Assembly (NCBI GenBank): GCA_027490755.1
Contig: JAIXXL010000037.1
Span: 4,352-68,351, forward strand
Direction: 5' to 3'
Length of the DNA: 64,000 bases
Origin: Betaproteobacteria bacterium
GTDB taxonomy: Bacteria > Pseudomonadota > Gammaproteobacteria > Burkholderiales > UBA3065
The number at the start of each line of letters is the position of its first letter. The stretch's first letter is position 1. Shown here in pieces: positions 36,624 to 54,171 of the stretch. The translations under genes were made by a program, and so were the position numbers. The notes beneath the pieces were generated by a model. The model did no database searches. It was not told where the DNA came from and saw only the letters and a program-made list of their open reading frames with translations.

Positions 36624-37495
<872 letters not shown>

Positions 37496-37496
<1 letters not shown>

Positions 37497-38554
37497 TGAC
37501 AAAGGCTACCCGAGACTCGCGCAAGCGGGTGCTCGCCGTGGGCTATGGTCTCATGGGTTCGAGCCTCGCACGACTGATCGACAGCAGTGGCTGGGCGAAA
37601 ATCGCAGGGGCCGTGGATGCATCGGATGCGGCGCGTCAGCGGGCAAGAGAAAATCACCAGCTGGATCAGGGAGCAACAGGCACTCACCTGCACACCATAT
37701 TGCGCCGTCTGCAGCCGGATATCGTTTCGATCAATACGCCGTCGGAGTATCACTTCAAACAGGTGATGGCAGCGCTTGACGCCGGCTGCCATGTACTGGT
37801 CGCCAAGCCTGTCGCCAGCGGACTCAATGAGGCGCTACGTATTACCCGACATGCACAGCTCTGCCGTCGCAAGGTGGTCGTCGGCCAGCAGATGCGCTTC
37901 AATCGTCACTACCGGTCGGTCGCAGCGTTCGTTGCGAGCGGTGCCATCGGGAAGGTGGAAAGCGTACAGCTATTGAACAGCAAGCCCCGGCATCAGGCAC
38001 TGAACCTGGGCTTGATGCCGGAGCCGGCAATGCTCGAAATGGCCTGTCACCACTTCGATGCACTGCTCAGCCTCTTCCCGCGAGCTCGGCCCCGATCGAT
38101 CGTCGCCCAGGGCTTCCGCCCTTCGTGGTCTGTCTATGCCGGGCACTGCATGGTAAACGCGATGATTGAACTGAATTCTGGCGTAAACGTGCTCTACCAT
38201 GGCGGATTTTCCTCGCAAGCCGAGCAGTACGAACTCCGGCTGGAGGGAACGCGCGGTGCGTTGCGCTGCCGGGGTACCCATATGTCGGGCACGGATTTTT
38301 CGTATGAGGTAGCAGAGCGCGGCGGCTTTTTCGTGACTACAGATCTGGAGTCTGCGGTAGAGGCTGGCAGTGCGTGGCAGATCTACCTCGCACAATGGCA
38401 GCGATACCTGCAGGGAGGCGCGGAGCCGGCATTTTCTGCCCGGCGCAATTTGCCTGTGTTTGCGTTACTGTCGGCTGGCATCGAGTCGATCAAGCGCGGC
38501 AGGCGCATCGACCTTTCCTCATCGGCGCGCTATGCCGCTGCCTTGGCGCGCTGA
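37496..38554 (+). CDS. Gfo/Idh/MocA-family NAD(P)-dependent oxidoreductase
   Basis: 352 aa. Rossmann N-terminus 'RVLAVGYGLMGSSLARLI', 'PDIVSINTPSEYHFKQVMAALDAGCHVLVAKP'. The start overlaps the kdsA stop. Confidence 0.85.
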
Positions 38555-38555
38555 C

Positions 38556-39410
38556 ATGGGCCTGCAACTCGAGTGGCGTCCGCTGCCGCAAGGCATGCTC
38601 GCATTCGACAGGCTGCATGGCGTACCCATCGCGGGAATTGGGCAAAGCTTCATGCGGCCTTGGATCTACCCGTTGTATACGCCCGGCGGCTATCAGGTAC
38701 TTCAGGAGTTCGCTTTCGACCATCCGTTCCACAACGGCTGTTTCATCGGCTGGCACCCGGTTCGGTACGACGGTGTCGACCACAATTTCTGGGCCACGCC
38801 GCCAGCGCGGTCAGCGCCCGATCCGATGATGACTAATCTTGGCCGGATCGAAGCGATCTCTCCGCCCTCGCTTACCGCTGCGCCCGACTTCCTCACCGCC
38901 GAGCTGGCATTGAGATGGCGGTCTGAAACGGGAGCGGTCCTGGCTGAGGAGCTGCGGTCGCTGAGGTTCTGGGCTACCGGCTGCGGACACGGCATCGACC
39001 TGCGCTCGCAGCTACGGGCAGTAAACCATCCTCTGGAACTGCCTGCTACAAAGTTTGCAGGTATCGGCATTCGGCTCGATCCTCGACTCACACCGGCCTG
39101 CGGTGGCTGGTTTGAGGGCAGCGCAGGAAAGGGCTGTGCTGCCGCCTTGCATGACCGGCCCGGCGATTTTCTACGGGTAGAGGCAAACGTCGGCGATCGC
39201 GCCTTCGGCTTGTATCTGGAAGCACCGGGTTTCGGCCTTCCCTGGTTCGTGCGCGACTACGGACTGATTCTGCTGAACCCCGTATGGCATGACGGGCGGC
39301 ACCTACTGCGTGACGAGCCGCTCGTCATGCGCCTGACGATGGTCGCCTATGATGCAGCAGCCACGCCAGCCATCGACGAGTTGTCTCGCCTTGCGTGCAT
39401 TCCGGGCTGA
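38556..39410 (+). CDS. PmoA-family (DUF6807-like) protein, tentative
   Basis: Start taken at 'MGLQLEW', 1 nt after the previous stop (track ORF begins 38370, overlapping). 'PWIYPLYTPGGYQVLQEFAFDHPFHNGCFIGWHPV..DHNFWA'. Such proteins commonly pair with Gfo/Idh/MocA oxidoreductases. Confidence 0.5.
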   Translation: MGLQLEWRPLPQGMLAFDRLHGVPIAGIGQSFMRPWIYPLYTPGGYQVLQEFAFDHPFHNGCFIGWHPVRYDGVDHNFWATPPARSAPDPMMTNLGRIEAISPPSLTAAPDFLTAELALRWRSETGAVLAEELRSLRFWATGCGHGIDLRSQLRAVNHPLELPATKFAGIGIRLDPRLTPACGGWFEGSAGKGCAAALHDRPGDFLRVEANVGDRAFGLYLEAPGFGLPWFVRDYGLILLNPVWHDGRHLLRDEPLVMRLTMVAYDAAATPAIDELSRLACIPG

Positions 39411-39415
39411 GCGCC

Positions 39416-40804
39416 TTATTCTTCCTTCATTGACGCAGCGATGCGCTTGGTCAGCGGATGCAGGATGTATTGCAGCAGCGTGCGGCGACCGGTCTTGACG
39501 ACAATCTCGACGGGCATGCCCGGCTGCAGCTTGCGGTCACCTAATGTCTTGATTCCCTCAGGCGTAACGGTCACCCGGCCAAGATAATAAGGCGCCACGG
39601 ACGGGTTGTTCGGATCGGCCAGCACGTCAGTAGATACTGAGCTCAATACCCCCGAAACCACCAGTTGCGGGGAGTGCGCAAACGTATTGAAGCGAACGTC
39701 GACCGGGTCACCGGCTTTCACGCGGTCGATCAAATTGGGAGCGATTTTTGTCTCCAAAACGAGTTCCTCACCCTTGGGAACGATATCCATGATCTTCTGG
39801 CCGGGCTGGATAACCGCGCCGACCGCTTGGACGCCAAGGCCGACAACCTGGCCTGCAGCCGGGGACTTGATCTCGACCCGCGCAAGCTCCTCTGAAATCG
39901 CTTTGTAACGTTCGGCCGTCGCCTGGAGTTCCGGTCGAATCTGCGACATCTGGCCATCGACCTCCTTGTCACGCTCTGCCTTCAGTGAAACCATCCGCTG
40001 CTGGATATCGAAGATGGTCTGGGTTGCCTGCGTCTGCGTGGCACGGACCTGCGCCAGCGAGCTGCTGACTTCAGCGACGCGGCGCTCGAGATCCATCTGA
40101 CGCACCAAGGGTACATAACCTTCCTTGACGAGCTCGCGGATCTTGGATAGCTCGTCATTCAGCGAACCAGATTGAATCAGCAGATTCCTCTCGACCGTTT
40201 TAGCGGCCTCGATGTTGGACTCCTGCGTGACGATATTGGCCTTGAGTGAATTCATCGACGCGACCAGCGCTTCGCGGCGAGATTGGAGCAAGGTTCGTTG
40301 CACCTCCATTTGCCGCGACAGTCCCGGATCCCGCCGTGCCGCCTCGACCAGCGGCGGATCGAAAGCGATTGCCGGCGTACCGAGCTGCTCGGCGAGCAGG
40401 CGCGCCTCCGTTGCTTTCAAGCTCAGATACTGCTGGCGCACCATTTCGAAATTCGCCTTCGCCGTGCTGTCACCGAGCCTCAGCAGTGGCTGTCCGGCCT
40501 CGACGAACTGCCCTTCCCTGACCAGCACTTCCTTGATGATCCCTCCCTGCAGATGCTGGACAGCCTTTCGCTTGGTATCGATAGCCACTGAACCAAAGGT
40601 CGGAACACCTTCATCGAGCCCGGCAAATGATGCCCACAGCAGCATGCCGCCAAGGCCGAGGCCCAGCACAACGAAACCAATGCGCGAAATTCTTTTCGTA
40701 TCTGTGGGCAGATCGACGATCTTCTCCGCCGCACCGGGAAGCTGTGCAGGGATGGGCGCGAGATGAGGGTCTTTGCGGTGGGTCAGGCGCTGGTTGGTGT
40801 TCAT
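39416..40804 (-). CDS. T1SS membrane fusion protein (HlyD/AprE/RsaE family), locus 2
   Basis: 462 aa. TM 'IGFVVLGLGLGGMLLWASFAGL', coiled-coil middle, 'TGRRTLLQYILHPLTKR'. Paralogue of 1834-3201. Confidence 0.9.
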   Translation of the reverse strand: MNTNQRLTHRKDPHLAPIPAQLPGAAEKIVDLPTDTKRISRIGFVVLGLGLGGMLLWASFAGLDEGVPTFGSVAIDTKRKAVQHLQGGIIKEVLVREGQFVEAGQPLLRLGDSTAKANFEMVRQQYLSLKATEARLLAEQLGTPAIAFDPPLVEAARRDPGLSRQMEVQRTLLQSRREALVASMNSLKANIVTQESNIEAAKTVERNLLIQSGSLNDELSKIRELVKEGYVPLVRQMDLERRVAEVSSSLAQVRATQTQATQTIFDIQQRMVSLKAERDKEVDGQMSQIRPELQATAERYKAISEELARVEIKSPAAGQVVGLGVQAVGAVIQPGQKIMDIVPKGEELVLETKIAPNLIDRVKAGDPVDVRFNTFAHSPQLVVSGVLSSVSTDVLADPNNPSVAPYYLGRVTVTPEGIKTLGDRKLQPGMPVEIVVKTGRRTLLQYILHPLTKRIAASMKEE

Positions 40805-42528
40805 GCCGTGAAGTCCGGTGGGTTGTTCAATGCCATTCGTGGCTGTTCGCCTTGATTGATCTGACGACCGACGATTCCGTCTTTCAGTGCAACCACGCGA
40901 TCAGCGAGGTCCAGCAGGTTATTCTGATGGGTGATGACGACCACGGTGGCGCCCTGCTCGCGAAGTGTGGTGAGGGCTCGTGACAGCGCCAATTCCCCCT
41001 CCTCGTCCAGATTGGCGTTGGGTTCGTCAAGCACGAGCAGGGAGGGCTGTCCGTAAACGGCGCGTGCCATGGCGAGCAGCTGACGCTGGCCACCGCTGAG
41101 AAACGAGTTCTGCTTGCGAAGAATCGCGTTGTATCCGCCGGGCAGGCGCTGCACGGTATCGTGCACGCCGGCGAGCTTGGCGGCGGCAATCATTTTGTCC
41201 GGGTCGATGGTGCCAAGGCGTACGATATTGTCCGCGACGCTGGCATCGAACAGTTCATAGTCCTGCGGAAGGTAGCCGATTTCGGCACCGAACTGCTCCC
41301 GGTCGAGCGCCGCGATCGGATGACCACCATACAAAACGCTTCCCGAAACTTCAGGCCAAACACCGAGCAAAACTTTACCCAGTGTCGACTTGCCGGAGCC
41401 CGATGGACCGACGATGGCGACGATCTCGCCAGGCGAGAGCGTCAGATTGACGTTATCGAGAATCGGCCGGCTGCGGCCCGGGGCGGTCGCGCTCACGTTG
41501 CGCAATTCAAGAATGCGGTATCCGGGTAACTGGAGATCGCGCACAGCGGGCTTCGGAGCGCCGTCCAGCAGCGCGTCGACACGCCTCATCGCGGCCCAGG
41601 CCGTCATGAAGCTGCGCCAGCTGCCCACCATCGTGTCGAGCGGCGAAGTTGCCCGCGACATCAGCAAATTGGCAGCGATCATGGCGCCGATCGTGAGTTC
41701 GCCCTGAATGACGAGGATGGCGCCGGCCCCCAAGGCCAAAGACTGCTTGAGCAAGGTCACTTCGCGGGTGAGCGAGCTCATCTTCAGCTCGGTATCGTTG
41801 GCTTTTTCATTGATGGCTATTGACTCTCGCTGTCGCGCAAGCCACCGCTGTTTCAGGTGGCCGACCATGCCATGCGCCTCGATCACTTCCGCATTCCTGA
41901 GCTTGCTGTGAACGAAAGCATTGACCTCACGTTCCTCCTCGCTGGCCTCTTCCTTGACGCCGACGATTTTTCGCGAGCTGAGCAGGGCCAGCAGGCCGAG
42001 GTTCAGGACGAAAGCCACCGTGACCCAGCCGAGGAACGGGTGGAGCATGAACATCGCCGCGACATAGAGCAACGTCCACGGTGCATCAAAAAATGCAAAC
42101 ACCGCCTGACTCGTGATCCACTGGCGAACGGTAGCAAGATCAGCGAATGCCTGGGTCGGGTTGCCGGCGTCTCCACGCAACTGCTGATGAAACGTTGCGC
42201 GAAAAAGGGGATCGCTCAGGCGAAGATCGATCTTCAAACCGATCCTGACAACGATCCTCGATCGCAACCATTCGGAAAAGGCGAGCGCCGAAAGAAGGAT
42301 CAGCGCAATCAGGCTAACTGCAGTCAATGTAACCTCGCTTCGGCTCATCATGACGCGGTCGTACACCTGCAGCATATAGAGCGTCGGCGCCAGCATCATC
42401 AGGTTGGCGACCGAAGAGAACAGTGCGACGAGCCCAAGCTCCCTGCGAAAAAGCGCCAAGGTTCTGAGCACGTGTTTTTTCTGCACGCCGGGCAGCGAGG
42501 CGTGCGCGGTCAGGGTCGGATTAGGCAT
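40801..42528 (-). CDS. T1SS ABC transporter permease/ATPase (PrtD/RsaD class), second gene of a tandem pair
   Basis: 575 aa. 'GPSGSGKST', 'LSGGQRQLLAMARAVYGQPSLLVLDEPNANLD', 'VVVITHQ'. The stop overlaps the adaptor start by 4 nt. Confidence 0.9.
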   Translation of the reverse strand: MPNPTLTAHASLPGVQKKHVLRTLALFRRELGLVALFSSVANLMMLAPTLYMLQVYDRVMMSRSEVTLTAVSLIALILLSALAFSEWLRSRIVVRIGLKIDLRLSDPLFRATFHQQLRGDAGNPTQAFADLATVRQWITSQAVFAFFDAPWTLLYVAAMFMLHPFLGWVTVAFVLNLGLLALLSSRKIVGVKEEASEEEREVNAFVHSKLRNAEVIEAHGMVGHLKQRWLARQRESIAINEKANDTELKMSSLTREVTLLKQSLALGAGAILVIQGELTIGAMIAANLLMSRATSPLDTMVGSWRSFMTAWAAMRRVDALLDGAPKPAVRDLQLPGYRILELRNVSATAPGRSRPILDNVNLTLSPGEIVAIVGPSGSGKSTLGKVLLGVWPEVSGSVLYGGHPIAALDREQFGAEIGYLPQDYELFDASVADNIVRLGTIDPDKMIAAAKLAGVHDTVQRLPGGYNAILRKQNSFLSGGQRQLLAMARAVYGQPSLLVLDEPNANLDEEGELALSRALTTLREQGATVVVITHQNNLLDLADRVVALKDGIVGRQINQGEQPRMALNNPPDFTA

Positions 42529-44257
42529 GGGTCTTCTGCCTCGCTGCCTGCTGGGGGGAAATGGTCGGCACGTCCTTGCCCGCCAGTTTGTCGAGCACCA
42601 TATCGCGCGGTCCGTAAATTTTTGGCCTGCCCGCCTTGAGGATCAGCAGTCTGTCGACATAGGGCAGGATACCTTTCCGGTGGCTGATGATGACCACCGT
42701 GGTTCCCCGCTGCTTCAGGTGCTCGAGCGTGTGATGGAGCGCGCGCTCTCCCTCCTGGTCCAGGTTGGAATTGGGCTCATCGAGCACCACCAGCCTCGGA
42801 TCGCCGTAAATTGCTCGAGCGAGGCCGATCCGCTGCCGCTGGCCGCCAGACAGCAGGCCACTGTCTGCGCTGATGAGTGTGTCGTATTGCTCGGGAAGCG
42901 ACTCGATCATGTCGTGCAGCCCAACCAGCTTCGATGCCTCGATGACTTTCGAGCGCTCGATGTCGCCAAACCGACCAATGTTTTCGGCGATCGACCCCTC
43001 GAAGAGCTCGATATCCTGAGGCAGATAGCCAAGGTGGGGGCCTAGCTGTTCTCGATCCCATGCGTGAACATCGGTACCATCCAGCCTGACCGTACCGGCA
43101 ACGGGTGTCCAGACACCGACCAGCAAACGGGCGAGGCTCGATTTGCCGGAGCCGGACGGTCCCATGACGCCGAGGCTGACGCCTGCTTTCAGTTCGAACG
43201 AGACATTGCTCACAACGACCGACTTGCTCCCCGGCGCACGCGCAGTCACCTCCTCGACCGACAGGCTGCCCATGGGGGGCGGTAACTGGACACGCTGCCT
43301 CGACACCGGGTTATCGGCGAGAAAGATCTCCAGACGATCGCAGGCATCGCGCGCCACCGCCACCTGCTTCCACGAACTGATGAGCTTTGCAAGCGGCTGG
43401 ATAGCCTTCCCGCCAAGGATCGAGGCAATGATCATGCTACCGCCATGCGGCGGCAACTCACCCATCAGCGTCAGCACGCAGCCGACTCCCAGCACGAGCG
43501 ACCCCTGCGCGAGGAGCAAAAACTTGGACAGGCAGGCACTTACGCCCTGCGCCTCGGCCACCAGAGTCTGTGCGCGCAGGGCCACCGACTGCGGCTCGAA
43601 CCAGCGCTGCATCAATTTGTCCATCATGCCCATGGCTTGGGCAACCTGTGCATTCTTCGTGCTGGATGCGATGAACATCTGAGCTGCCGTCGTGCTTTGC
43701 TGCGATTCACGGACCAGCGGGTGCACGCGCCTCTCATTGAGCACCCCGACGGCCATGAGCAGCAGTCCAATCCCGATCGCGGTGAGCCCCATGACCGGGT
43801 GCATGAGGTAGACGATCACGAGGAAGAGCAAGCTGACAGGCGCATCCATCAATGCGCCCATGGTCGGTGAGGCGATAAAGCTGCGTACCGTTCTCAGATC
43901 GAGCAGGGCCTGACCCGAGCCTTGCGAGCGCGTCGCGAGGTGTGCATCAAAACTCGCCTGGAGTACACGGTCGGAGAGCTTGGCATTGAATGCGAGAGAC
44001 GCGGCAATCAGCACCCTGCCGCGAATCCATTCCAGCAGGCCCGACATCAGCAGCAGCCCGATCAGCAACAAGGTGACCATACCAAGCGTGTACAGACTAC
44101 GGCTGTTGATGACCGGACCGTAAACATCTTTCATGTAACCTACCGGAGCCAGCGACAGCAGATTGGCCACGACCGTGAACATCATCGCCTTCGCGAGATA
44201 AGGCGACAGCGAGGCGAGCGCCGTGCGCAATTCGGGTTTTTTTTCCGGGTTCTTCAT
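42521..44257 (-). CDS. T1SS ABC transporter permease/ATPase (PrtD/RsaD class), first gene of a tandem pair
   Basis: 578 aa. 'GPSGSGKSS', 'LSGGQRQRIGLARAIYGDPRLVVLDEPNSNLD', 'VVIISHR'. 8-nt overlap with the next ABC gene. Confidence 0.9.
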   Translation of the reverse strand: MKNPEKKPELRTALASLSPYLAKAMMFTVVANLLSLAPVGYMKDVYGPVINSRSLYTLGMVTLLLIGLLLMSGLLEWIRGRVLIAASLAFNAKLSDRVLQASFDAHLATRSQGSGQALLDLRTVRSFIASPTMGALMDAPVSLLFLVIVYLMHPVMGLTAIGIGLLLMAVGVLNERRVHPLVRESQQSTTAAQMFIASSTKNAQVAQAMGMMDKLMQRWFEPQSVALRAQTLVAEAQGVSACLSKFLLLAQGSLVLGVGCVLTLMGELPPHGGSMIIASILGGKAIQPLAKLISSWKQVAVARDACDRLEIFLADNPVSRQRVQLPPPMGSLSVEEVTARAPGSKSVVVSNVSFELKAGVSLGVMGPSGSGKSSLARLLVGVWTPVAGTVRLDGTDVHAWDREQLGPHLGYLPQDIELFEGSIAENIGRFGDIERSKVIEASKLVGLHDMIESLPEQYDTLISADSGLLSGGQRQRIGLARAIYGDPRLVVLDEPNSNLDQEGERALHHTLEHLKQRGTTVVIISHRKGILPYVDRLLILKAGRPKIYGPRDMVLDKLAGKDVPTISPQQAARQKTHA

Positions 44258-44910
44258 TGGACCATGGGCGCGGCGGGTCTGGCCGATGCAGCAATCGAAA
44301 CATAGGCCGGGTGGTCGGCAAGCACCTCGTCATCCGGACCGAAAACGAAGGTCAGGAAAAACTGGTCTTTCGCAGAGGCCAAACCGATTTCCTTGATTTT
44401 TTCGGTCGCAAAGCGCTGCTCGAGTTCGGTGTCGAGTTTCACTTCAAAGCGAATGCGACCATCCGGCGTGAACATGGACAGCAGATTGCCTTTCAGGCTC
44501 AAGGTATTCCGATCAAAAAAGACAGGGGCATTCGGGCCAAAGTGAATCTTCGGCAACGATGCGTCAGGGTTATCCTTCACCCTCCATGGGCTGTCGGGCG
44601 CGGCATAGGTTTTCTTGCATACGCGACTCACCATGTAGATGGCATTGCAGACCATCTGCGATCCCATTCCGGGATGGCTTTCACGCAAGCTGCGGTAGGC
44701 AAGGTGATGCAGCCCAACCCGGTTCCAGCATCGGTTGTTGATGACAAAGGGCATCAATGCGTTGCAGAGTTCCGCAAAACTCGCCTGGAGTTGCCGGAGC
44801 CGAACCGCCTGCTCCGGACTAGGCTTGATGGGCAGGATGAATTTGCTCTTCACGGCCGTGCCCGAACGGCAGCATCGGCAGCCAAGCGGCTGACGCGGCG
44901 ATCTGTGCAT
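44254..44910 (-). CDS. hypothetical protein resembling only the N-terminal (non-RuvC) half of IS605-OrfB/TnpB-family proteins
   Basis: Start taken at 'MHRSPRQ', 19 nt after the kdsD stop (track start 44991 overlaps kdsD). 'KFILPIKPSPEQAVRLRQLQASFAELCNAL', 'NRVGLHHLAYRSLRESHPGMGSQMVCNAIYMVSRVCKK', 'FFDRNTLSLKGNLLSMFTPDGRIRFEVKL'. Pattern recalled from TnpB N-termini, not verified by search. No RuvC or Zn-finger part. The stop overlaps the ABC start (ATGA). Confidence 0.35.
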   Translation of the reverse strand: MHRSPRQPLGCRCCRSGTAVKSKFILPIKPSPEQAVRLRQLQASFAELCNALMPFVINNRCWNRVGLHHLAYRSLRESHPGMGSQMVCNAIYMVSRVCKKTYAAPDSPWRVKDNPDASLPKIHFGPNAPVFFDRNTLSLKGNLLSMFTPDGRIRFEVKLDTELEQRFATEKIKEIGLASAKDQFFLTFVFGPDDEVLADHPAYVSIAASARPAAPMVQ

Positions 44911-44929
44911 GCGAAGGCAGAGGTCATGC

Positions 44930-45916
44930 TCATGCCACTTTGCTCTGCAGCAGGTCGTGCCATGCGAGCAGCCCGACCGGACGGTCGTCATCCATGCAGA
45001 CGATGCGGCTGATGCGGCGCTCCTCGAACACGCGTAGCGCCTCGCTGGCCAGCATCGATGCGCTGATCGTTTTTGGGGCGGTCGTCATGAACTCGCCCAC
45101 CGGCCTGCCGAGCTTCGTGTCAAATTCGCCGCGCGATTGCAGGATCAGGCGCCGCAGGTCGCTATCCGTGAAAATCCCGCACAGTTTGCCTTCGTCGAGC
45201 AGCACGATGGCACCGGCACGGCCAGTCGCCATCTCGGGGATCGCATCGATCAGGGGCGCCCCGGGCGAGCTTTGTGGTATCTCGGCCAGCGGCTGCATCA
45301 CGTCGCGCACGCGCAGGTAATACTTGCGCCCAAGCGCACCCATGGGATGGGTTCGGGCAAAGTCCTGTGTCGTGAACCCGCGAGCTGCCAGCGCCGCCAT
45401 GGCCAGCGCGTCCCCGAGCGCAAGCTGCACCGTCGTCGACGCCGTGGGCGCGGCACCAATCGGACAAGCTTCCTCGGCAACGTTCGAATTCAGATGACAT
45501 TCACACAATTGGGCAAGCCGGCTGCCCGGGTTGCCGGTGATGCCAATCGCCTTGGCACCAAAGCGGTGAGCAAACGAGACGAAATCAATGACCTCGTCCG
45601 TCTCGCCGCTGTTGGACAGCGCGACCAGCACATCCCCGTGCGTGATCATCCCGAGGTCGCCGTGACCGGCCTCGCCGGCATGCACAAAAAACGCGGGCGT
45701 TCCGGTCGATGCCAGCGTGGCTGCGATCTTCCGTCCGACATGCCCGCTCTTGCCGACGCCGGTCACCACAACCCTGCCGGTGCAGGCCAGCACCATGCCG
45801 GTAGCCTCGGCAAATTCCTCGTCAAGACGTGATGCGGCATGCAATACCGCATCCGCTTCCTTGCGCAATACCTCCTGCCCCAGCTGCAGGAGATCGCCTG
45901 TAAAAGTGACGGCCAT
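44930..45916 (-). CDS. kdsD: arabinose-5-phosphate isomerase (KdsD/KpsF; SIS + tandem CBS)
   Basis: 328 aa. 'GRVVVTGVGKSGHVGRKIAATLASTGTPAFFVHAGEAGHGDLGMI', 'LSNSGETDE', and a C-terminal CBS pair. Confidence 0.9.
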   Translation of the reverse strand: MAVTFTGDLLQLGQEVLRKEADAVLHAASRLDEEFAEATGMVLACTGRVVVTGVGKSGHVGRKIAATLASTGTPAFFVHAGEAGHGDLGMITHGDVLVALSNSGETDEVIDFVSFAHRFGAKAIGITGNPGSRLAQLCECHLNSNVAEEACPIGAAPTASTTVQLALGDALAMAALAARGFTTQDFARTHPMGALGRKYYLRVRDVMQPLAEIPQSSPGAPLIDAIPEMATGRAGAIVLLDEGKLCGIFTDSDLRRLILQSRGEFDTKLGRPVGEFMTTAPKTISASMLASEALRVFEERRISRIVCMDDDRPVGLLAWHDLLQSKVA

Positions 45917-45919
45917 GGC

Positions 45920-46591
45920 TTAGACGTTCATGCCGCTCTGGGCACGGTCATGGGCTGCGTGCCATTCATCGGCCATGTCGCAGTTCCGGTAGTCGGTGAA
46001 GCAGGGCGTGCCGAGCGTGTAATGGAGCAGGCTGGCGTCGTAGTTATCCGGATACTCGGTCGTCAGCCAATTCCACTGCTTCGGCAGTTCACCCACGAGT
46101 TCATCGGGCAGCCAGGTAAACCGGTGAAGGTAGGCACCTGTCTGTTTCATGACGAACTCCGGCGTCAGGATCCGGTTTGCGGCATGGCCGCAATTCCACA
46201 ACACGACGCTCGACCAGTTCTTGCGCGGATAGTCCTGGTTTTTGTTGCCCAGATATTTGTCGTGGGCTTTGGTCTTGTAGTCGTGCTTGACACACATGAC
46301 CGCCTTGCTCTCGTCCCGCAGCGACCACAACTTTGCGATGTCGTCACGGCAGATCATGTCGCCGTCGGCAAAAATGGCCCACCCGCTGAAATCCTGCAGG
46401 TACGGTGTCAGGAAGCGCGAATAAATGAACGTATTGCTCCCGTCGGTATGGGTTTCCCGGTAGCCGGGCAGGGCCTGCAAGACGAGTGGCGTGAACGACA
46501 CGGGCATCGAGCTTTTTTCAAGAATGCTCTGGCAGAAGGTGTGGTACGCCACGGCCTCGCGATGGTCATACCCGATAGTGACTCTGATCAT
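45920..46591 (-). CDS. GT-A fold glycosyltransferase (family 8-like)
   Basis: 223 aa. 'FIYSRFLTPYLQDFSGWAIFADGDMICRDDIAKLW' (DxD = DGD), 'YPRKNWSSVVLWNCGH'. Confidence 0.65.
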   Translation of the reverse strand: MIRVTIGYDHREAVAYHTFCQSILEKSSMPVSFTPLVLQALPGYRETHTDGSNTFIYSRFLTPYLQDFSGWAIFADGDMICRDDIAKLWSLRDESKAVMCVKHDYKTKAHDKYLGNKNQDYPRKNWSSVVLWNCGHAANRILTPEFVMKQTGAYLHRFTWLPDELVGELPKQWNWLTTEYPDNYDASLLHYTLGTPCFTDYRNCDMADEWHAAHDRAQSGMNV

Positions 46592-46622
46592 GGGTGTGCG
46601 GCTGGTTGGTTTTCAGTGGGGT

Positions 46623-47180
46623 TTAGCGCCAGTCCATCGTCGTGTTCAGGGTGGAGCAGACATACAGCCCCTCGGCCTTGCCCGTGCGCAGAAACTGGTC
46701 GACACGAAAAAAATTCGACAGCAACGAGAACCAGTATCCGAAAGGCATCTGGGTCACATGGGCGTTGCGTCCGTCCGGAAGCTTCTTGCCTGCCGGGTAG
46801 TTCGCGATCGAACAGATGAAGACCTTGTTCGTGTGGTCGCGGATGTCCGCGAACACGTTGGCGAGCGCGCCGAACTCGACATGCTCTAGCACATCGAGGC
46901 AAACGGTCAGGTCAAAACGATCTGCCGGCATCGCGGAGAATTCGTCCGACGCAACGTCGAAACCCTCGACACGCACTGCGGGCATTTTCCCGCGCAGATG
47001 GTGCACGAAGTGGCCTTTGCCGCATCCGTAGTCAAGCACCGAGCCGAAACTCCGTTTTTCGATGAGCTTTTCGATCATCGGATAATGCTTTGCGGTGACA
47101 TTGCCGACGCCGAACGACTCGGTTGCCGAATGCAGCTGTTTCAGCTGCTGTGCATATTGTTCGCTGATGGTTTCTCTCAT
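46623..47180 (-). CDS. class I SAM-dependent methyltransferase
   Basis: Start taken at 'MRETISEQ' (track start 47234). Motif I 'VLDYGCGKGHF', plus 'FDLTVCLDVLEHV'. Confidence 0.75.
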   Translation of the reverse strand: MRETISEQYAQQLKQLHSATESFGVGNVTAKHYPMIEKLIEKRSFGSVLDYGCGKGHFVHHLRGKMPAVRVEGFDVASDEFSAMPADRFDLTVCLDVLEHVEFGALANVFADIRDHTNKVFICSIANYPAGKKLPDGRNAHVTQMPFGYWFSLLSNFFRVDQFLRTGKAEGLYVCSTLNTTMDWR

Positions 47181-47187
47181 GATTTCC

Positions 47188-47826
47188 TCACAGTGCTGCG
47201 CAAAAACCAAAACCGGCCAGCGAGCAGTGAACATTCAGCCTCGCGTCGAGAATGATTTCTCCGCAATTCGGAGCCTTGTTACGGCCATATCCCTTGATCA
47301 GGATGAATCCCTTTTTGACTTTTTCGAAAGACTTGAGGCCGCTCGACACCTCGGCTTCGTTGGATGCATTGCAGAACAGGATGTCGATCGCATCCCCCGC
47401 TTCGCCGATGTCGGCCATTTGCAGGCCGGCGTTCATTTGCCGCTCGAGGCGCTGTGCGAGCTCGAGGGCAAACCCATCCGTTGCGTGGATTTTCTGGATG
47501 CCACGCGGGGCATAGACGCGAACCTGCGATGCGAGGTCACCCACGAACGAACTCACCGCCAGCGAGGGCAGGGTCATTGACTGGGACAACTGGAACACCC
47601 GTACTTCAGTCGGCGCCCGGACTTTGCAGACAAACGAGTGGATGAAGTCGATGATCGAATACATCTCGTAGGTGACCTGCTGCGCGCTGAACTGCCGCAG
47701 GAAGGCACCCGAGGTCGATGTTTCGCTGTAGAGGAAATCGCGGCGGTTGAGGACACACATCTCGTTATCCGAGATGACGCCTTGTGGATCTTTCAGGCGA
47801 TCCTTGATGAGGTCATAGAGCTTCAT
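47188..47826 (-). CDS. hypothetical protein (operon member; function unassigned)
   Basis: 212-aa ORF. The start overlaps the upstream stop (ATGA) and the stop is 7 nt before the next start. No confident motif. Confidence 0.5.
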   Translation of the reverse strand: MKLYDLIKDRLKDPQGVISDNEMCVLNRRDFLYSETSTSGAFLRQFSAQQVTYEMYSIIDFIHSFVCKVRAPTEVRVFQLSQSMTLPSLAVSSFVGDLASQVRVYAPRGIQKIHATDGFALELAQRLERQMNAGLQMADIGEAGDAIDILFCNASNEAEVSSGLKSFEKVKKGFILIKGYGRNKAPNCGEIILDARLNVHCSLAGFGFCAAL

Positions 47827-49442
47827 GATTGAGCCACCCGTTCCGGCAGTGCTTTCGATGCGACCAGAGAGAAGAACTCTTCGTTGGTCTGGCTGGTGTT
47901 CTTGCGGTAGATCTTGATATCGGGGTAGGCGATGCTGTAATCGTCTGCCAGCCCCCAGATGAACGGCGCGCCCCTTTCCGACAGCAGCAGATGAACGCTG
48001 CGCCCTGCAGCGCCGGCGAAGTGCACCAGCGCAGTCGAAACAGAAATCACGTCATCGCACGCACAGATCAGCGAAAACCAGCTGTCGAGGTCCTTCTTGA
48101 AATCGATGCCATCGATCCATCGAACATTCTTGAACCGGCTGCTCAGATACTCTTTTTCCTTGCTCACCTCGCCGTACTGGAGAGAGACAAAGATCACGTC
48201 GTCTCGCCGGAAAATCGGGTCCCAGAGCTCGATTTCCAGCGTTTTGGTTTTCTGCGCGCGCTCCCAGTAGCCGCCTTTCCAGGAAAACCCGACTATTCTC
48301 TTTGCCCCGGTTTTCTTGAGCAGCACTTCCCGATATTTTTCCAGCTTGGCCGTGTCCGGGGCAAGGTAGGTCTCGCGGTGAGCGATGAAGTCTTCCTTCG
48401 AGCTGCGGTACTTCTTCTGCATCGAGCCGATCGGGTAGAAGCCGTTGGCGAGGCCAGGGTTGGAGGCAATCAGGGGCGCCGCGCCGTAGGTAAAGACGGG
48501 CAACCCCGGAAACGAGCGCTTCAGGATGGGCTGAAAACGCTTTTCCGCCACCAACGCAGTTTTCGGGAAATCTTTCCTGAACTGGTTCAACACTCCGAGA
48601 AAGAGCACCTGGTCGCCGATACCCTGTTCACAGGCGGCAAAGGTCCATTTGTTCGGATCAATGGTGCCGCTATCGATGATGCGCCGCGCACCCTCGAAAA
48701 GCTTCGGCAGAGGCCGACCGATTTTCCCGACCTCCGGAAGAAGGCCGTTGTCGTAGTTGATCCACCCCTCGCGGAACTCACCGAGGCGCAACTGGACGAG
48801 CGACATGTTCCACAGCGTGGCAACGTTATCCGGATTGATCTCGAGCGCAGCCTTGAATGTTTTCAAAGCTTCCTCGGGGCTGCGCTCTGCCAGCGTATCG
48901 GCTTTCAGGCGGATGATTTCGTGCTTGTCCCCGAAGTGTTCTTCGGCCAGCTTCAGTAACGCATCCGCCTCTTCCTTCATGAACAGCGACCGGTAGCAGG
49001 AAATCAGCCCGCTCAGGACGGATACGTTCGGCTGGTCCGGTTCATGATGCGGCTTGAGGATCTCGAGCGCTTTCGTATACTGCTGTTCCTGGAGCAGCGC
49101 TGCCGCGTAATTGATGCAGACGCTCTGGTTCTTCGGCATGACCTCGTAGGCCTGCTCACCAAAGGCCACGGCCTTTTTGAAGTCGCGCTTCTTGATGTAG
49201 GTGGGAATCAGGTTGGCGAGAGCGAGGTTCTGCTTCGGATTCAGCTGGAAGCTCTCGACCAGATATTCCTCCGCCCTGTCGAACTGCTCGCGGCGAAGCG
49301 CGACGACTCCCTTGTAGGCCAGCCCTGCGGACCGGTTGAAGCGCAGCAGGGAGTCGGCCTTGGTATCGGCCACATCCAACTGGTTCTGCTTTAACGCCTC
49401 ATCTATTTCTGCCGCGAGTTTGATCAGCTCGTTCTGTTTCAT
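47823..49442 (-). CDS. TPR-repeat protein with a C-terminal GT-B (GT9/GT41-like) glycosyltransferase domain
   Basis: 539 aa. N-terminal TPRs ('GLAYKGVVALRREQFDRAEEYL', 'YAAALLQEQQYTKALEIL', 'KAALEINPDNVATLWNMSLVQLRLGEFREGW'). C-terminal 'IVGFSWKGG', 'DLDSWFSLICACDDVISVSTALVHFAGAAGRSVHLLL'. Confidence 0.7.
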   Translation of the reverse strand: MKQNELIKLAAEIDEALKQNQLDVADTKADSLLRFNRSAGLAYKGVVALRREQFDRAEEYLVESFQLNPKQNLALANLIPTYIKKRDFKKAVAFGEQAYEVMPKNQSVCINYAAALLQEQQYTKALEILKPHHEPDQPNVSVLSGLISCYRSLFMKEEADALLKLAEEHFGDKHEIIRLKADTLAERSPEEALKTFKAALEINPDNVATLWNMSLVQLRLGEFREGWINYDNGLLPEVGKIGRPLPKLFEGARRIIDSGTIDPNKWTFAACEQGIGDQVLFLGVLNQFRKDFPKTALVAEKRFQPILKRSFPGLPVFTYGAAPLIASNPGLANGFYPIGSMQKKYRSSKEDFIAHRETYLAPDTAKLEKYREVLLKKTGAKRIVGFSWKGGYWERAQKTKTLEIELWDPIFRRDDVIFVSLQYGEVSKEKEYLSSRFKNVRWIDGIDFKKDLDSWFSLICACDDVISVSTALVHFAGAAGRSVHLLLSERGAPFIWGLADDYSIAYPDIKIYRKNTSQTNEEFFSLVASKALPERVAQS

Positions 49443-49864: not shown

Positions 49865-51040
49865 TCAGACGCGCGGCGTGTCTGAAGGCGGCTTCAATCT
49901 GACAGGGACGGTTTCGACAGCCTCCATCAGGCGATCGCGGCTGAGATGGGCGTACCGGCTGGTCGTGCGGATATCTGCATGCCCGAGCAACTGCTGCACC
50001 TCGTAAAGACTTCGGCCGGCATTGACGAGGAAAGACGCGAGGCTATGGCGAAGATCGTGAATGCGAAGCTCAGGAATGCCCGCCCTTTTACGCGAGGCGT
50101 CCCAGCTGTAATAGATGGATATGAAAGGTTTGCCAGTCGCCGGGTTGGGGAAAATGAAATCGGCACCGCCGCCGGCCTCGGCGTGCAAACGATGCAGCAA
50201 ACGCAGGGCCTCGGCGGACAGCGGCACGTGGCGCACCTTACCCGACTTGGTTTTTGGAATACGCCACAGCCGCAATTCAAAATCCACATCGCACCAACGC
50301 GCATCGAGTACTTCGCGCTTGCGTGCTCCGGTCAGCACCAGATAATGGACAATATGCAGCAACACACTGTTGGGGCTTTGCCGCACACTCTCGAGCAGTG
50401 CCTCCGATTGAGAGGGTGTCAGGAAACGCTCGATGCGGTTGTCGTCCCGGAGATTGAGCAGGTCTTTTGTGGGGTTGCGGCTGACGCCGTCGGCACCCCA
50501 CCGCAACGCGAGCGTAAATCCGTAGCGGATCAATACGAGAAATCTGTTGCAGGTGCCCGGCGCGTATCCCGCTGCCCGCATCTGGTTAACGGCATCGGCA
50601 ATGTCCCCCTGGGTCAAGCCTCCCATCACATGATGCCCCAAGCGGGGAATGACATGATTTCGGATCATCGAGTCGTCTGTATCCCAGCTACGTTTGTAGC
50701 TCTTCACAAACGGCAAATACTGCGAATTGAAAAAATCCTTGACCGTAATACCGGAGAGTACCTGCTCTTGTTGCTTGGGATCGATGCGGTTATGTGCCCT
50801 GCGCAGAATGTCACGCGCTGCCTCGCGTGCCTCGTCCAGGGTAATGACCCGTGCATCTCCCAATGTGATGACGCGCGGCTTTCCCAGAAGGCGGTAGCGA
50901 ACACGGTAATTCATCCGCCCATTGCGCAGGATGTCGACATAAAAGCCTTTCAAGAGGCTGTCGAATATTTCAACATGCGCACGCCCCTCAGGACACGAGC
51001 AGTTTGCCAGTAGTTCAGATGAGAGAAGCGTGGCAGGCAT
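49865..51040 (-). CDS. tyrosine-type site-specific recombinase (P4-like integrase)
   Basis: 391 aa. N-terminal 'GFYVDILRNGRMNYRVRYRLLGKPRVITLGDARVITLDEAREAARD' (P4-int arm-binding type). Catalytic region 'TGARKREV', 'HDLRHSLASFLVNAGRSLYEVQQLLGHADIRTTSRYAHL'. Confidence 0.9.
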   Translation of the reverse strand: MPATLLSSELLANCSCPEGRAHVEIFDSLLKGFYVDILRNGRMNYRVRYRLLGKPRVITLGDARVITLDEAREAARDILRRAHNRIDPKQQEQVLSGITVKDFFNSQYLPFVKSYKRSWDTDDSMIRNHVIPRLGHHVMGGLTQGDIADAVNQMRAAGYAPGTCNRFLVLIRYGFTLALRWGADGVSRNPTKDLLNLRDDNRIERFLTPSQSEALLESVRQSPNSVLLHIVHYLVLTGARKREVLDARWCDVDFELRLWRIPKTKSGKVRHVPLSAEALRLLHRLHAEAGGGADFIFPNPATGKPFISIYYSWDASRKRAGIPELRIHDLRHSLASFLVNAGRSLYEVQQLLGHADIRTTSRYAHLSRDRLMEAVETVPVRLKPPSDTPRV

Positions 51041-51200: not shown

Positions 51201-54092
51201 GGACACAATTTTTTCACGCTCACTACCAGCGTCGATGGTGTGTCGGGCTCGGCAGGTAACGACACCATCAACGGCGTGGTCGCTGCCTCGGGAACGTTTA
51301 CGATCGGCGATGACATCATGGGCAACGCCGGTACCGACACGTTGAACCTGACCGCACTCGATCATGAGACCGACAGCGTCTTTGCAACGCTCAATGGCGT
51401 TGAGAACGTCAATGTTCGCCAGCTGGGCACGGCAGCAAATGCCTTGGTGATCAATGCTGTCAACTGGTCAGGCGTTGCGTCGCTGTCGAATGCCAGCTCG
51501 CTTTCAGCAACGACCTTGACGGTGACCGGTGCTGAAGTCGGCACCAACATTCGTCTTGAGGGAAACACCGACATCAACGTCGCATTCCGCAACAGCACGA
51601 CGGCGGGCCCGGTGGGCGTCACGCTGCTGAATGCAGGTAGCTCGGATGGCGCGACCACGCTGGCATCGGCCACCGCCAACGGCACTGCAAACCTCGATCT
51701 GGACCAGGCAGACGCAGGCCTGATCTCGGGCGTGAACGTAGCTCTGCAGGGCACGAACCTCGCGCGTCTCGAGGCTGGAAGCAACGTCACGACGTATACG
51801 ATCACTGGCACCGGTAACGCCATCCTCGTAACCGACGACACCATCACCAGCTTCAATGCTGCTGCTGCGCAGGGGAACCTCGATGTGACGTTCTCGGGTG
51901 CTTCGGAACTCACCGTGATGGGTGGTGCAGGCAACGACACTTTCCGCCTCGGCAGCACGCTGAGCAACAGCGACTCGGTCAACGGCGGTGCTGGCACCGA
52001 TACCGTTGCTGTAACGATCAGCGGCTTCAACCGCAACCTGAACACGTCGCTCGTTGAAAATGCAACGGTGGCTTTCACCGAAGCAGCCGGTGGCACCCTG
52101 AATGCATCCGCCTCGACTGTATCGAACTTCACGCTGGCGGCCGGCACGGCAGGTAACGTCGCCTCGCTGGAGGCGGTTGCCAACGGCACGACAATCACCC
52201 TGAATGACGATGACATCGGCAACGTGACGCTCGACTACGCGTCGGGTGCCGCCTCGACGACCCTGAACCTCGGCTCGGTATCGGGCACCGTGGGTGTCGG
52301 TACGCTGGCCATCACCGACGTCGCTAACGTGACCATCAATGCCGTGGGCGTATCGGGTACGGTTGGCGGCTCCATCGGTACCGCGTCGTTTGATTCCGAC
52401 CTGAAGTCGCTGACAATTGCTACCTCCGGCGGTGAAGCCGACCTGGCCATCGGTACCGATAACGGCGACATGGCTCTCGGTGGCGCAACCTCGCTGACCA
52501 TTACGTCGAACGGTTCGGCCGGAATCGCATTCACCAACGTCGATCTGGCCGGCACGGCACTGGCTGCAGTCAGCGTCAATGCCCGCGGAACCAATGCTGC
52601 CGGCATCACGGTGGGCGACGTGAGCGGCGCCGCGATCTCGACAGTCAACCTGTCCGGCACATCGGGCGCTGACGTCACCGTAGGCACCGTGGACTTGGGT
52701 GACAGCGCATCTGCAGCTGCTCGTTCGATCACCATCGCCGTCACGCAAGGTCAAAGTTCGGATGTCACCGTCGGCAACATTACGGTCAGCGGTCAAGGTA
52801 CCCTGAATGTCAACCTGACCCAGAACGGTACGGCCGTTGCCGACATCGGCACGATCACGCTGGTGAAGACGGGCACAGCCGATGCTGTGGCACAAAACCT
52901 GACTTTCGGTGCGGTTGCGGTCGCAGCAAGCGGTGAAGTCGCCATCAATGCCATCGCAGTTGGTTCGGGCACCGGCGCACAGCTGACCTTCGGTAACATC
53001 TCCGTCGGCCAAGATGGCGGCTACAGTGCCGGCAACATCACGGTGAGCGCTGGCCTGATTGATGTTGATGTCTCCTCGCGCAACGTGACGGTTGGCTCGT
53101 CTGCGACGGCCGTGTTTGGCAACATCGTTGAAAACAGCGGTGGCGCGATTGGCAGCGTTTCGGTGACGCTGGGGTCTGATGCCACGGCCACGTTCGGCAC
53201 GGTGACGGCATCTGCAATCAGCACTCACTCGATCATTGCCGCCACGGGCGCAAGCGCGAATTTCGGCAACATGACGGCTGAGCAAACCGTTGGCGCAATC
53301 GAGATCAGTGGTGTCGATGGCGCAGACGTGCAGTTTGGTTCGATCGGTGCGTCTGCGGTCGGTGCGATTGCTGTGTCTGGCGCGCTGGACGTTACGATCG
53401 GAACGATTACCGCAACGACACTTGGCGAGGTCAACGCGACGAATCTCGGTGCTTCGGGTTCGTTCACGATTGATCTGTCAGGCGTCACAAACGCTGTTGA
53501 AGTGAAGCTGGGTGCTGCTGCCAACACCGTGATTTCGGGTCTTGGTAACGACGTCATTACTCTGCGTGGAAACGGTACTGCTGCGGCTGGCAACGATGTC
53601 ATCCGCTACACTGCGACGGGACAAGGCACCGACAACATCATCAACTTTGTTGGCGGTAACGCTGCGTCGGGCGGGGATCAGATTGAGCTGTCTACGGGCA
53701 TTTCCACAGAAACCCTGTTCAACGTCGATGGTGAGGCGATTGCAAATACCGATGCTGCGGATTTGTCTGTTGCCATGACGGCGACCGGCGATACGCTCGT
53801 CGCGACCGACAACGTCATCGTGATTGCCACTGCCATGAGCACGACTGCGGGTATGCTGGACTTCCTTGATGGCGTCACAATGACGACTGCAGCTCAAGGA
53901 TCGGCAACGTATGTGGTTGCTTGGACTGACGGAACCGATACCTACGTTTCGCTGGTCGATGCAATCGGTGCTGGCTCCGCAGGTGCGACCACACTTGCCT
54001 CCGGCGGACACACCTTGTCGACCACGACACTGGCTGTCCTGCAGGGCGTCACCCCGGGCTCTCTCGTTGCAGCCAACTTCGACTTCGTCTAA
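51201..54092 (+). pseudogene. 5'-truncated RsaA-like S-layer paralogue (promoterless, anchor-less cassette; GTG at 51240 is the only in-frame start)
   Basis: Collinear with 55249-58590 from 'FFTLTTSVDGVSGSAGNDTING' (in frame from 51210; TAG at 51198-51200) to the shared tail '...PGSLVAANFDFV'. About 140 N-terminal codons present in the paralogue are absent. Confidence 0.7.
52141..52473 (+). repeat. near-identical 333-bp tract, arm 1 (inverted partner 56904-57236)
   Basis: By-eye alignment to the reverse complement of 56904-57236 shows about six mismatches. The flanking homologous sequence is clearly more diverged. Confidence 0.85.
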
Positions 54093-54136
54093 CTGACGAA
54101 CCGAAACCGGGGCGCAGGCCCCGGGCAGCCTTACAG

Positions 54137-54171
54137 CCCCGCTGGCCACAAGCCGGCGGGGCTCTTTTGTT
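54137..54171 (+). terminator. rho-independent terminator of the truncated S-layer paralogue
   Basis: CCCCGCTGG-ccacaag-CCGGCGGGG followed by CTCTTTTGTT. Confidence 0.7.

Follow-up and report, generated by a model that had tools for sequence, protein, structure and literature searches.

Several kinds of protein are known to be glycosylated in the cytoplasm ahead of their export: flagellins (by FlmG and Maf), autotransporters (by TibC/AAH) and two-partner-secretion adhesins (by HMW1C). The general view of type I secretion is that its polypeptides leave the cytoplasm unfolded and either unmodified or at most acylated, and we know of no established sugar source for the glycosylated surface proteins of the RTX (repeats-in-toxin) type found in aquatic bacteria. 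Here we describe a 64,000-nucleotide stretch of a betaproteobacterial genome (the window; assembly GCA_027490755.1, contig JAIXXL010000037.1, positions 4,352–68,351), in which a glycosyltransferase (GT) with tetratricopeptide repeats (TPR), hereafter TPR-GT, heads a nine-gene array that ends with genes of a type I secretion system (T1SS). On the grounds of sequence and structure prediction we consider it fairly probable that this locus encodes an FlmG-like cytoplasmic O-glycosylation system dedicated to giant proteins secreted by the type I route, here p1113 and p950. The conserved linkage between FlmG-like enzyme, exporter and cargo offers a testable answer to the question of sugar source, namely that glycosylation comes first and in the cytoplasm. 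If this is true, the T1SS channel passes glycopeptide chains. Surface glycoproteins of bacteria of this kind are likely targets of phages and grazers.

The closest described system is FlmG of Caulobacter crescentus and Brevundimonas, a soluble cytoplasmic enzyme with an N-terminal TPR acceptor-binding region and a C-terminal GT-B domain (PMC7591256; bioRxiv 10.1101/2022.03.25.485807), which has been shown experimentally to O-glycosylate flagellin and to bind it through the TPRs (PMC7591256). TPR-GT has the same predicted architecture. FlmG acts before its substrate is exported through a narrow channel and is encoded with sugar-supply genes, as proposed for the window enzyme, and homologues of the latter occupy the FlmG position in flagellin islands containing NeuB. 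Our locus differs in its proposed acceptor, a type I-secreted giant protein, in a coupled partner of ∼200 residues, and in a supply of 3-deoxy-D-manno-oct-2-ulosonic acid (Kdo) rather than of pseudaminic or legionaminic acid (Pse/Leg). The likeness is one of architecture and position; in sequence, the homologues identified are uncharacterised GTs of FlmG-like islands. This parallel, drawn by a sequence-only reading of the window that preceded the present analysis, is an apt one; the second that it drew, with the neighbouring RsaA T1SS and O-antigen genes of Caulobacter, fits less well.

Other known systems share parts of the arrangement. The TibC/AAH enzymes (Lu et al. 2014, cited in PMC7591256) are GT9-related, glycosylate serines of a secreted surface protein in the cytoplasm and are encoded beside their substrate; they differ in having no TPRs, in forming an iron-containing dodecamer and in serving Sec/type V rather than type I export. 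PrtDEF/AprDEF/HasDEF, RsaDEF (Caulobacter) and SapDEF (Campylobacter fetus) share with our exporter an ATP-binding cassette (ABC) protein without a C39 peptidase or C39-like domain (CLD), an HlyD adaptor and TolC, and their cargo has RTX-like motifs and an acidic-hydrophobic C-terminus, to which the degenerate motifs and the ending of p1113 and p950 may correspond. Unlike these systems, the window has two paralogous ABC genes, a fixed first gene derived from TnpB, and the exporter in an operon with glycosylation genes. SwmA of Synechococcus WH8102 is likewise a large glycosylated surface protein of an aquatic bacterium, for which ABC export is presumed; it is listed as an S-layer glycoprotein positive for periodic acid–Schiff (PAS) staining (PMC2943079), and the literature searched defines no glycosyltransferase or coupling mechanism for proteins of this type. 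Group 2 capsule loci (kpsF/kpsU) also have a dedicated KpsF-family isomerase that raises Kdo for a surface glycoconjugate, whereas the window has neither KpsC/S/M/T/E/D nor a CMP-Kdo synthetase gene. Our literature search on T1SS-cargo glycosylation, DUF4214 surface proteins, giant-flagellin glycosylation and RuvC-less TnpB, which covered few subscription journals, returned no earlier description of cytoplasmic O-glycosylation of type I cargo, of the GT and partner pair or of a TnpB-derived T1SS protein.

The glycosyltransferase, its partner and their genomic linkage

The nine minus-strand genes at 39416–49442 encode, in order, TPR-GT, a 212-aa open reading frame (ORF), an S-adenosylmethionine (SAM)-dependent methyltransferase, a GT8-like enzyme, a KdsD/KpsF isomerase, a 218-aa ORF (orf218), two ABC proteins (ABC1 and ABC2) and a membrane fusion protein (MFP). 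They are joined, 5′ to 3′, by a 4-nt ATGA overlap, gaps of 7, 31, 3 and 19 nt, and then ATGA, 8-nt and 4-nt overlaps. This structure had been put forward by the sequence-only reading, and its coordinates and all eight junctions were reproduced by an ORF listing and a junction script; the gene identities that it assigned were confirmed by Pfam and NCBIfam profiles, which gave zero matches for the 212-aa and 218-aa ORFs. No terminator-like hairpin was found on the minus strand inside the array, and we infer from its layout that the nine genes are co-transcribed. The enzymes of the operon and the neighbouring sugar enzymes are predicted to have neither transmembrane segments nor signal peptides.

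In TPR-GT, matches to Pfam TPR families are confined to residues 1–235, and the C-terminal 300 residues have no match to any Pfam or NCBIfam profile. An AlphaFold2 model built from an input alignment of 31 sequences (predicted local distance difference test, pLDDT, 91.8) begins with 14 TPR helices and continues into two Rossmann-like lobes, and its best Foldseek matches in the PDB are SPINDLY, human O-GlcNAc transferase (OGT) and Xanthomonas OGT (XcOGT), with E = 2e-9 and template modelling (TM) scores of at most 0.45. These proteins, together with the HMW1C-type N-glycosyltransferases that act before secretion, belong to GT41 and share TPRs, a GT-B fold and cytoplasmic protein glycosylation with the system proposed here. 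Membership of GT41, raised by the Foldseek result, was rejected at the sequence level, the profile PF13844 (Glyco_transf_41) having matched neither TPR-GT nor any of 15 relatives with the E limit relaxed to 10; the likeness is of fold only, and the catalytic motifs look instead like those of GT9. The GT9 profile PF01075 matched 3 of the 15 relatives weakly (best E 0.025) and left the window TPR-GT itself unmatched; some homologous fragments are labelled by JGI with the COG 'ADP-heptose:LPS heptosyltransferase' (LPS, lipopolysaccharide). The invariant family motifs EQG(I/L)GDQ and S-x-S-T-A-x-V-H-F-A-G-A are, as we take them, GT9-signature-like, and the motif SVSTALVHFAGAAG of TPR-GT presumably resembles the GT9 signature D(S/T)G..H.A.A. 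Of the three families to which the sequence-only reading had pointed, GT8 was thus recovered above its cut-off for the fourth gene (Table 1), GT41 was not, and GT9 appeared only weakly and only in relatives.

Sequence searches of solved structures with the GT domain, the 212-aa partner, orf218 and p1113 gave nothing useful besides designed TPRs. The GT-domain family comprises proteins of ∼525–535 residues, almost all metagenomic, with one at 77% identity in a Limnohabitans metagenome-assembled genome (MAG). TPR-GT can be aligned over both domains with the GT of a flagellin/NeuB island, L034 (28% identity, E = 2e-42). An N-terminal TPR region, a C-terminal GT-B domain and the absence of transmembrane segments are all features of the FlmG type, as are an adjoining giant protein or flagellin gene in relatives and sugar-supply genes at hand, kdsD lying in the operon and kdsA 2 kb away. 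We propose, from sequence and model, that TPR-GT is a protein O-glycosyltransferase of this type.

The 212-aa partner is suspected to be an adaptor or chaperone. In 28 loci the gene directly after that of the GT encodes a homologue of the partner, and these comprise nearly all loci whose GT shares at least 31% identity (the exceptions are L026 and L027); the 4-nt overlap between the two genes recurs in all six loci with measured gaps. Only M1 and D20 are invariant in the partner alignment, and a degenerate methyltransferase, the other identity tried for this ORF, was rejected for want of profile support and with these two invariant columns only. As a marker, the pair could be used to find T1SS cargo and giant flagellins that are glycosylated.

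A scan of representative genomes yielded 78 loci, which were analysed alongside Pfam-annotated contexts (both are cited by L numbers); the related loci are all from uncultured MAGs or single-amplified genomes (SAGs). The system is frequent among abundant betaproteobacteria of fresh and marine waters, with Limnohabitans-like lineages and marine SAGs and MAGs among them, and a sequencing-run search matched the locus only in four small freshwater-metagenome DNA runs and listed no RNA run. The nine-gene order of the window recurs in three freshwater MAG contigs (L006, L007 and L008, with TolC added in L007), and L001 and L005 have the same genes with the exporter located elsewhere. In marine betaproteobacteria (L014, L017–L020), where TPR-GT is only 33–35% identical to that of the window, the order is a giant Ser/Thr-rich protein, TPR-GT, partner, ABC, ABC, MFP and TolC, with no sugar genes between TPR-GT and the exporter genes and no Kdo genes. 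Where gaps were measured (L014 and L018), they are at most 12 nt from TPR-GT onwards, and the giant gene, for a protein of 1882–1922 aa, lies 76–107 nt upstream. The giant proteins of L013–L020 contain 24–28% Ser+Thr and no Cys. In L014, the gene directly upstream of the marine array (155–3844) encodes 1229 aa and three GT4 (Glycos_transf_1) domains.

A giant Ser/Thr-rich protein, often with an N-terminal DUF4214 domain, is also encoded immediately upstream of TPR-GT in L004, L009, L011, L012, L085 and two further contexts. The genes downstream vary there, including galactofuranose (Galf) mutase with DUF4422, an epimerase, aminotransferases, radical-SAM proteins, SAM methyltransferases, GT4 and GT61, in the pattern of a glycosylation island. 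In sister clades, the same GT and partner pair stands beside giant flagellins of 1128–1893 aa with Flagellin_N and Flagellin_C domains; these are found in marine and freshwater betaproteobacterial MAGs (L024 3146–8788, 12041–15505 and 15739–19125; L025; L028; L016 979–5835). More distant homologues (25–29% identity) are located in nonulosonic-acid flagellin islands, as in L034, where flagellin, GT and a cytidylyltransferase are followed by NeuB, PseB-like and PseC-like genes. In the Terriglobia MAGs L034 (8022–18023) and L037, the TPR-GT has an N-terminal SEC-C motif and the compact FlmG-type island lies outside Proteobacteria.

No phosphoglycosyl transferase, flippase or ABC glycan exporter, polymerase, or O-antigen or oligosaccharyl ligase was recognised among the annotated genes at 28–58 kb, a region whose ORFs without annotation are 28000–28545, 28560–29102 and 54267–54896 (no Pfam match) and 53478–54212 (never scanned). 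Because of the gene linkage, the TPR and GT-B fold, the soluble enzymes and this lack of lipid-linked machinery, we read the locus as one of glycosylation followed by export. Comparative genomics, the soluble enzymes and the same lack strongly favour glycosylation of the exported protein, which was one of the two options of the sequence-only reading.

The following mechanism may be envisaged. The KpsF/KdsD isomerase and KdsA would boost Kdo-8-phosphate, and housekeeping KdsC and KdsB would complete CMP-Kdo. In the cytoplasm, the TPR domain would dock on the giant Ser/Thr-rich protein (p1113 or p950), with TPR-GT probably working as a complex with its translationally coupled 212-aa partner, and the GT-B domain would put the first sugar on Ser/Thr. 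The GT8-like enzyme and the methyltransferase may then extend or decorate the glycan, after which the heterodimeric PrtD-type ABC pair, the HlyD adaptor and TolC, an exporter module headed by the RuvC-less TnpB derivative, would export the glycoprotein by means of the C-terminal signal of the cargo. What we infer rather than observe is which protein is the acceptor, that glycosylation takes place in the cytoplasm, and that Kdo is present on protein.

Candidate cargo, exporter and its TnpB-derived first gene

Together, p1113 and p950 have ∼24% Ser+Thr, no Cys and almost no Lys/Arg (in p1113, 23.6% Ser+Thr and 2.5% Lys+Arg), and they share the ending ...LVAANFDFV. One known type of signal in substrates of the PrtD/AprD class has hydrophobic residues after an acidic one at the extreme C-terminus. 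Both have 3–4 degenerate RTX-like GxGNDxI motifs ∼130–190 residues from the C-terminus; the HemolysinCabind match of p1113 (residues 920–940) is weak and below cut-off (E = 4e-4). p1113 shares 60% identity with the giant DUF4214 protein of L001 and 37% with the giant protein encoded directly before TPR-GT in L009. From these sequence features, p1113 and p950 are likely T1SS substrates, as is an 829-aa RTX/He_PIG/FG-GAP protein also encoded at 28–58 kb.

The genes for p950 and p1113 are convergent paralogues that share inverted repeats of 913 nt (81% identity; 51792–52704 and 56673–57585) and of 128 nt (86%; 3′ ends). By analogy with the sap locus of C. fetus, p950, which lies beside an integrase gene, could be a silent cassette for recombinational surface variation, or it could represent a simple insertion.

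The ABC proteins, the HlyD adaptor and the TolC channel together have the components of a PrtD/AprD-class T1SS. Canonical ATPase motifs (Walker A, signature, Walker B-E) are present in both ABC proteins, whose transmembrane regions begin at residue ∼20–30 with no N-terminal C39/CLD domain. They are paralogues with 35–37% identity in tblastn cross-matches and would form a heterodimer. The HlyD adaptor has a single N-terminal transmembrane segment. Between the window and L006–L008, the enzymes are 67–78% identical and the T1SS proteins and orf218 (39416–44910) only 42–55%, which would reflect either faster evolution of the exporter or a replacement of the module that left the gene order intact.

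The exporter module begins with orf218, which is, as judged by fold and sequence, a genuine TnpB derivative. Its AlphaFold2 model (pLDDT 86.7) has as its top 25 Foldseek matches exclusively the N-terminal parts, wedge (WED) and recognition (REC), of Cas12f, TnpB, Fanzor and Cas12k (E from 3e-6). A full-length TnpB that adjoins a Y1 transposase (TnpA) matches it with its N-terminus (38% identity over 169 residues, E = 5e-31), and the family profile also recovers full-length TnpBs that continue into the OrfB_IS605 and TNB domains. The description of this gene as TnpB-N-like in the sequence-only reading therefore holds for both fold and sequence. The protein itself ends after WED and has no RuvC domain or TNB zinc ribbon, PF01385 and PF07282 both remaining unmatched. 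Its start may be ATG 44910 (19-nt gap after kdsD) or GTG 44853 (76-nt gap), the latter being possible because the N-termini of the family (MKxK-F/I-x-L...) fit there.

The family has over 1100 members near 200 aa, which form 766 clusters at 50% identity and have 37 invariant columns, and an orf218-type gene directly precedes ABC-ABC-MFP(-OEP, outer-membrane efflux protein) in all ten contexts sampled (five distant ones and L001, L006–L008 and L011). Among the five distant contexts, at least four have sugar-nucleotide or glycosyltransferase genes on the flanks of the orf218-type T1SS. A decaying insertion sequence remnant was rejected in view of the number of clusters, the invariant columns and the fixed position before the ABC genes in unrelated genomes. 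No transposon context (TnpA, ends) was seen for orf218, which has a fixed host-gene context and a 4-nt overlap with ABC1 that leaves no space for a 3′ guide RNA. An Rfam scan of the window found a c-di-GMP riboswitch as the only family at the gathering threshold, and no omega-RNA downstream of orf218.

TldR and the other exapted TnpBs that have been surveyed are likewise immobilised and associated in a conserved manner with host genes, among them sigma factors, SpoIIE, flagellin and a peptide ABC importer operon (PMC10691335). Unlike orf218, which is WED and REC only at ∼200 aa, the known cases retain an inactivated RuvC and a guide-RNA region. A nuclease-less TnpB remnant of this size at the head of T1SS operons would be a new type of TnpB exaptation, for which the options are a regulator or a cargo adaptor. 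A wider proposal, which at this stage is speculative and rather unlikely to hold in full, is that two-ABC T1SSs headed by a RuvC-less TnpB constitute a widespread and unrecognised exporter class for cytoplasmically glycosylated giant proteins, that FlmG-type GTs with their ∼200-aa partner switched between flagellin and T1SS cargo, and that WED/REC was exapted as a nucleic-acid-binding regulator or as an adaptor for cargo or ABC.

In L091, the gene of a SapC-family protein (8852–9658) shortly precedes an orf218-ABC-ABC-MFP-OEP array and the gene of a 1221-aa protein; the SapC family takes its name from the S-layer secretion locus of C. fetus.

Sugar supply and competing explanations

The CMP-Kdo pathway proceeds through KdsD, KdsA, KdsC and KdsB. 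Two of these four Kdo-activation enzymes are encoded at the locus, an arabinose-5-phosphate isomerase and Kdo-8-phosphate synthase. The isomerase does not reach the KdsD equivalog model (317 against a cut-off of 505). The kdsA gene is directly upstream of TPR-GT in L006 and L007 and on the opposite strand in the window. The sequence-only reading had given the missing kdsB as its limit; tblastn with an E. coli query likewise gave no match for the gene in the window, and the statement was incomplete in that it overlooked the true kdsA 2 kb away on the other strand. KdsC and KdsB are presumably housekeeping copies encoded elsewhere in the genome. Kdo is a plausible protein-linked sugar because kdsD lies in the operon, because CMP-ulosonic-acid synthetases adjoin distant homologues, and because a Maf flagellin glycosyltransferase can take Kdo as donor (PMC11339370). 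We regard its attachment to protein in the window system as about an even bet.

The GT8-like protein is 58–73% identical to the products of genes directly after distant TPR-GT relatives in nine loci (L040, L045, L047, L062, L065, L073, L075, L078 and L082), in which the adjoining TPR-GT is only 25–29% identical; being far more conserved in sequence than its neighbouring GT, it may have a fixed role. The methyltransferase is read from ATG 47180, preceded by the ribosome-binding site GAGGAA, and at 185 aa its length matches that of homologues. The convergent plus-strand genes (TolC, BNR_2, KdsA, GFO and DUF6807), which the sequence-only reading had overlooked, belong to the same system as the operon. 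Of these, the BNR_2 gene accompanies the locus in L001 and L008, and its product may act on ulosonic-acid glycosides; the GFO gene is kept beside TPR-GT in L001, L005 and L008; and the DUF6807 gene, whose true start is probably near 38529–38553, is always paired with it.

Several observations weigh against a dedicated glycosylation and export system. The p1113 gene is 5.8 kb from TPR-GT, past an integrase gene and the inverted paralogue, and the exporter module of L001 is separate and on the opposite strand, so that the two modules can be separate transcription units. The neighbour-joining tree of GT domains, in which partner-associated GTs group together and T1SS-linked and flagellin-linked clades are interleaved, carries no support values. 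Neither kdsB nor kdsC had a tblastn match in the window at E 1e-3, with E. coli queries that cover close or moderate homologues only. The GT9-like sequence motifs would suit ADP-heptose as well as CMP-Kdo, and the constancy of GT and partner amid varying sugar genes may mean that Kdo is a later or unrelated addition.

In one alternative the protein is glycosylated without Kdo. The sugar transferred by TPR-GT would then be a housekeeping one, such as the heptose that TibC/AAH take from ADP-heptose, and the Kdo genes, BNR_2, GFO and DUF6807 would be needed for a decoration added later, for recycling or for some unrelated function of the envelope. This is consistent with the weak GT9 similarity, with an HldE-like gene that adjoins the orf218-type T1SS in L086, and with the occurrence of GT and partner without Kdo genes in most clades. 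However, the locus has only two recognisable GTs for at least two types of sugar, KdsD lies inside the operon, kdsA is placed next to the GT in L006 and L007, and the distant homologues have CMP-ulosonic-acid synthetases beside them. We judge this alternative improbable.

Similarly small is the probability that we give to the other option of the sequence-only reading, which our results disfavour, namely that the enzymes make a Kdo-containing anchoring glycan, an LPS-core-like oligosaccharide on a lipid carrier to which the exported surface protein attaches, much as RsaA binds O-antigen in Caulobacter, with the TPR region merely coupling the enzyme to the secretion or assembly machinery. GT9-like, GT8-like and KdsA/KdsD proteins are indeed families of LPS inner- and outer-core enzymes, which also counts against glycosylation of the cargo itself, and LPS core enzymes are likewise soluble or peripheral cytoplasmic proteins. 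An anchoring glycan is nevertheless difficult to reconcile with a locus in which no lipid-linked assembly, flippase or ligase genes are found among the annotated genes at 28–58 kb, with a GT and partner that also stand beside flagellins, which are not LPS-anchored, or with the marine pair that lies between cargo and exporter and has no Kdo genes. In addition, the GT stays constant while the sets of sugar genes near it differ widely, and its best fold matches are protein O-glycosyltransferases.

Mere co-location, in which a hypervariable, lower-GC surface island packed independent modules and read-through has no function, would fit the integrase, the 57–62% GC of the island, the separate opposite-strand exporter of L001 and T1SS parts much more diverged than the enzymes, but is very unlikely, since the linkage is kept or regained across TPR-GT identities of 33–78% and two gene orders and orf218-type T1SSs stand beside sugar or GT genes in at least four of five unrelated contexts.

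Features of the surrounding region

GC content is 57–62% across 28–58 kb and 65–74% in the flanks, which suggests that this region (Table 1) is a flexible or horizontally acquired surface island. The integrase gene apparently belongs to an insertion that parted p1113 from the TPR-GT operon, a reading adopted because the giant gene abuts TPR-GT in relatives.

Table 1. Coordinates in the window of the features discussed, with the basis for each assignment (scores are given against the model cut-off)
Feature	Coordinates	Strand	Basis
TolC-family T1SS outer-membrane channel	33929..35314	+	TIGR01844, 325 bits vs 225
BNR_2 sialidase-like beta-propeller	35311..36573	+	PF13088, E 1e-39; no transmembrane/signal segment
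KdsA (Kdo-8-phosphate synthase)	36663..37496	+	Equivalog NF009109, 474.8 vs 457
GFO/IDH/MocA sugar oxidoreductase	37496..38554	+	Pfam
DUF6807 protein	38370..39410	+	PF14100, E 1.5e-30
HlyD-family T1SS periplasmic adaptor (MFP)	39416..40804	-	TIGR01843, 331.7 bits vs 208.7
T1SS ABC permease/ATPase 2 (ABC2)	40801..42528	-	TIGR01842, 570 bits vs 510
T1SS ABC permease/ATPase 1 (ABC1), PrtD type, no C39/CLD	42521..44257	-	TIGR01842, 595 bits vs 510
orf218, RuvC-less TnpB derivative (WED + REC), ∼199–218 aa	44254..44910	-	AlphaFold2, Foldseek, sequence
KpsF/GutQ-family arabinose-5-phosphate isomerase (SIS + 2 CBS)	44930..45916	-	TIGR00393, 294.9 vs 203.7
GT-A GT8-like glycosyltransferase, 223 aa, DGD motif	45920..46591	-	PF01501, 26.2 bits vs 24.3
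Class I SAM-dependent methyltransferase, 185 aa	46623..47180	-	Methyltransf_23, E 2e-11
212-aa partner of TPR-GT	47188..47826	-	4-nt overlap with TPR-GT gene; no Pfam/PDB match
TPR + GT-B (GT9-like) glycosyltransferase, 539 aa	47823..49442	-	Pfam TPR, AlphaFold2, Foldseek
Tyrosine integrase	49865..51040	-	Phage_integrase and Arm-DNA-bind_3 Pfam matches
p950, inverted paralogue of p1113	51240..54092	+	Lacks first ∼140 aa; same C-terminus
p1113, candidate glycosylated T1SS cargo	55249..58590	-	Composition, degenerate RTX motifs, C-terminus

Proteins that are probably secreted or surface-located are dense in the window. A 1109-aa protein at 17568–20897 (-) carries 15 ALTTAQ repeats, and three RTX-repeat proteins are encoded at 21024–22322 (-), 24820–26607 (-) and 31024–33513 (+). 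A 565-aa protein at 29286–30983 (+) contains 10% Trp, 15% Asp and no Cys, has no Pfam match and consists of ∼20 repeats of the type 'IDWGxVxWxE'. The c-di-GMP-I riboswitch (Rfam RF01051, 51.8 bits) is at 5164–5238 (-), directly 5′ of the minus-strand ORF 3766–5157.

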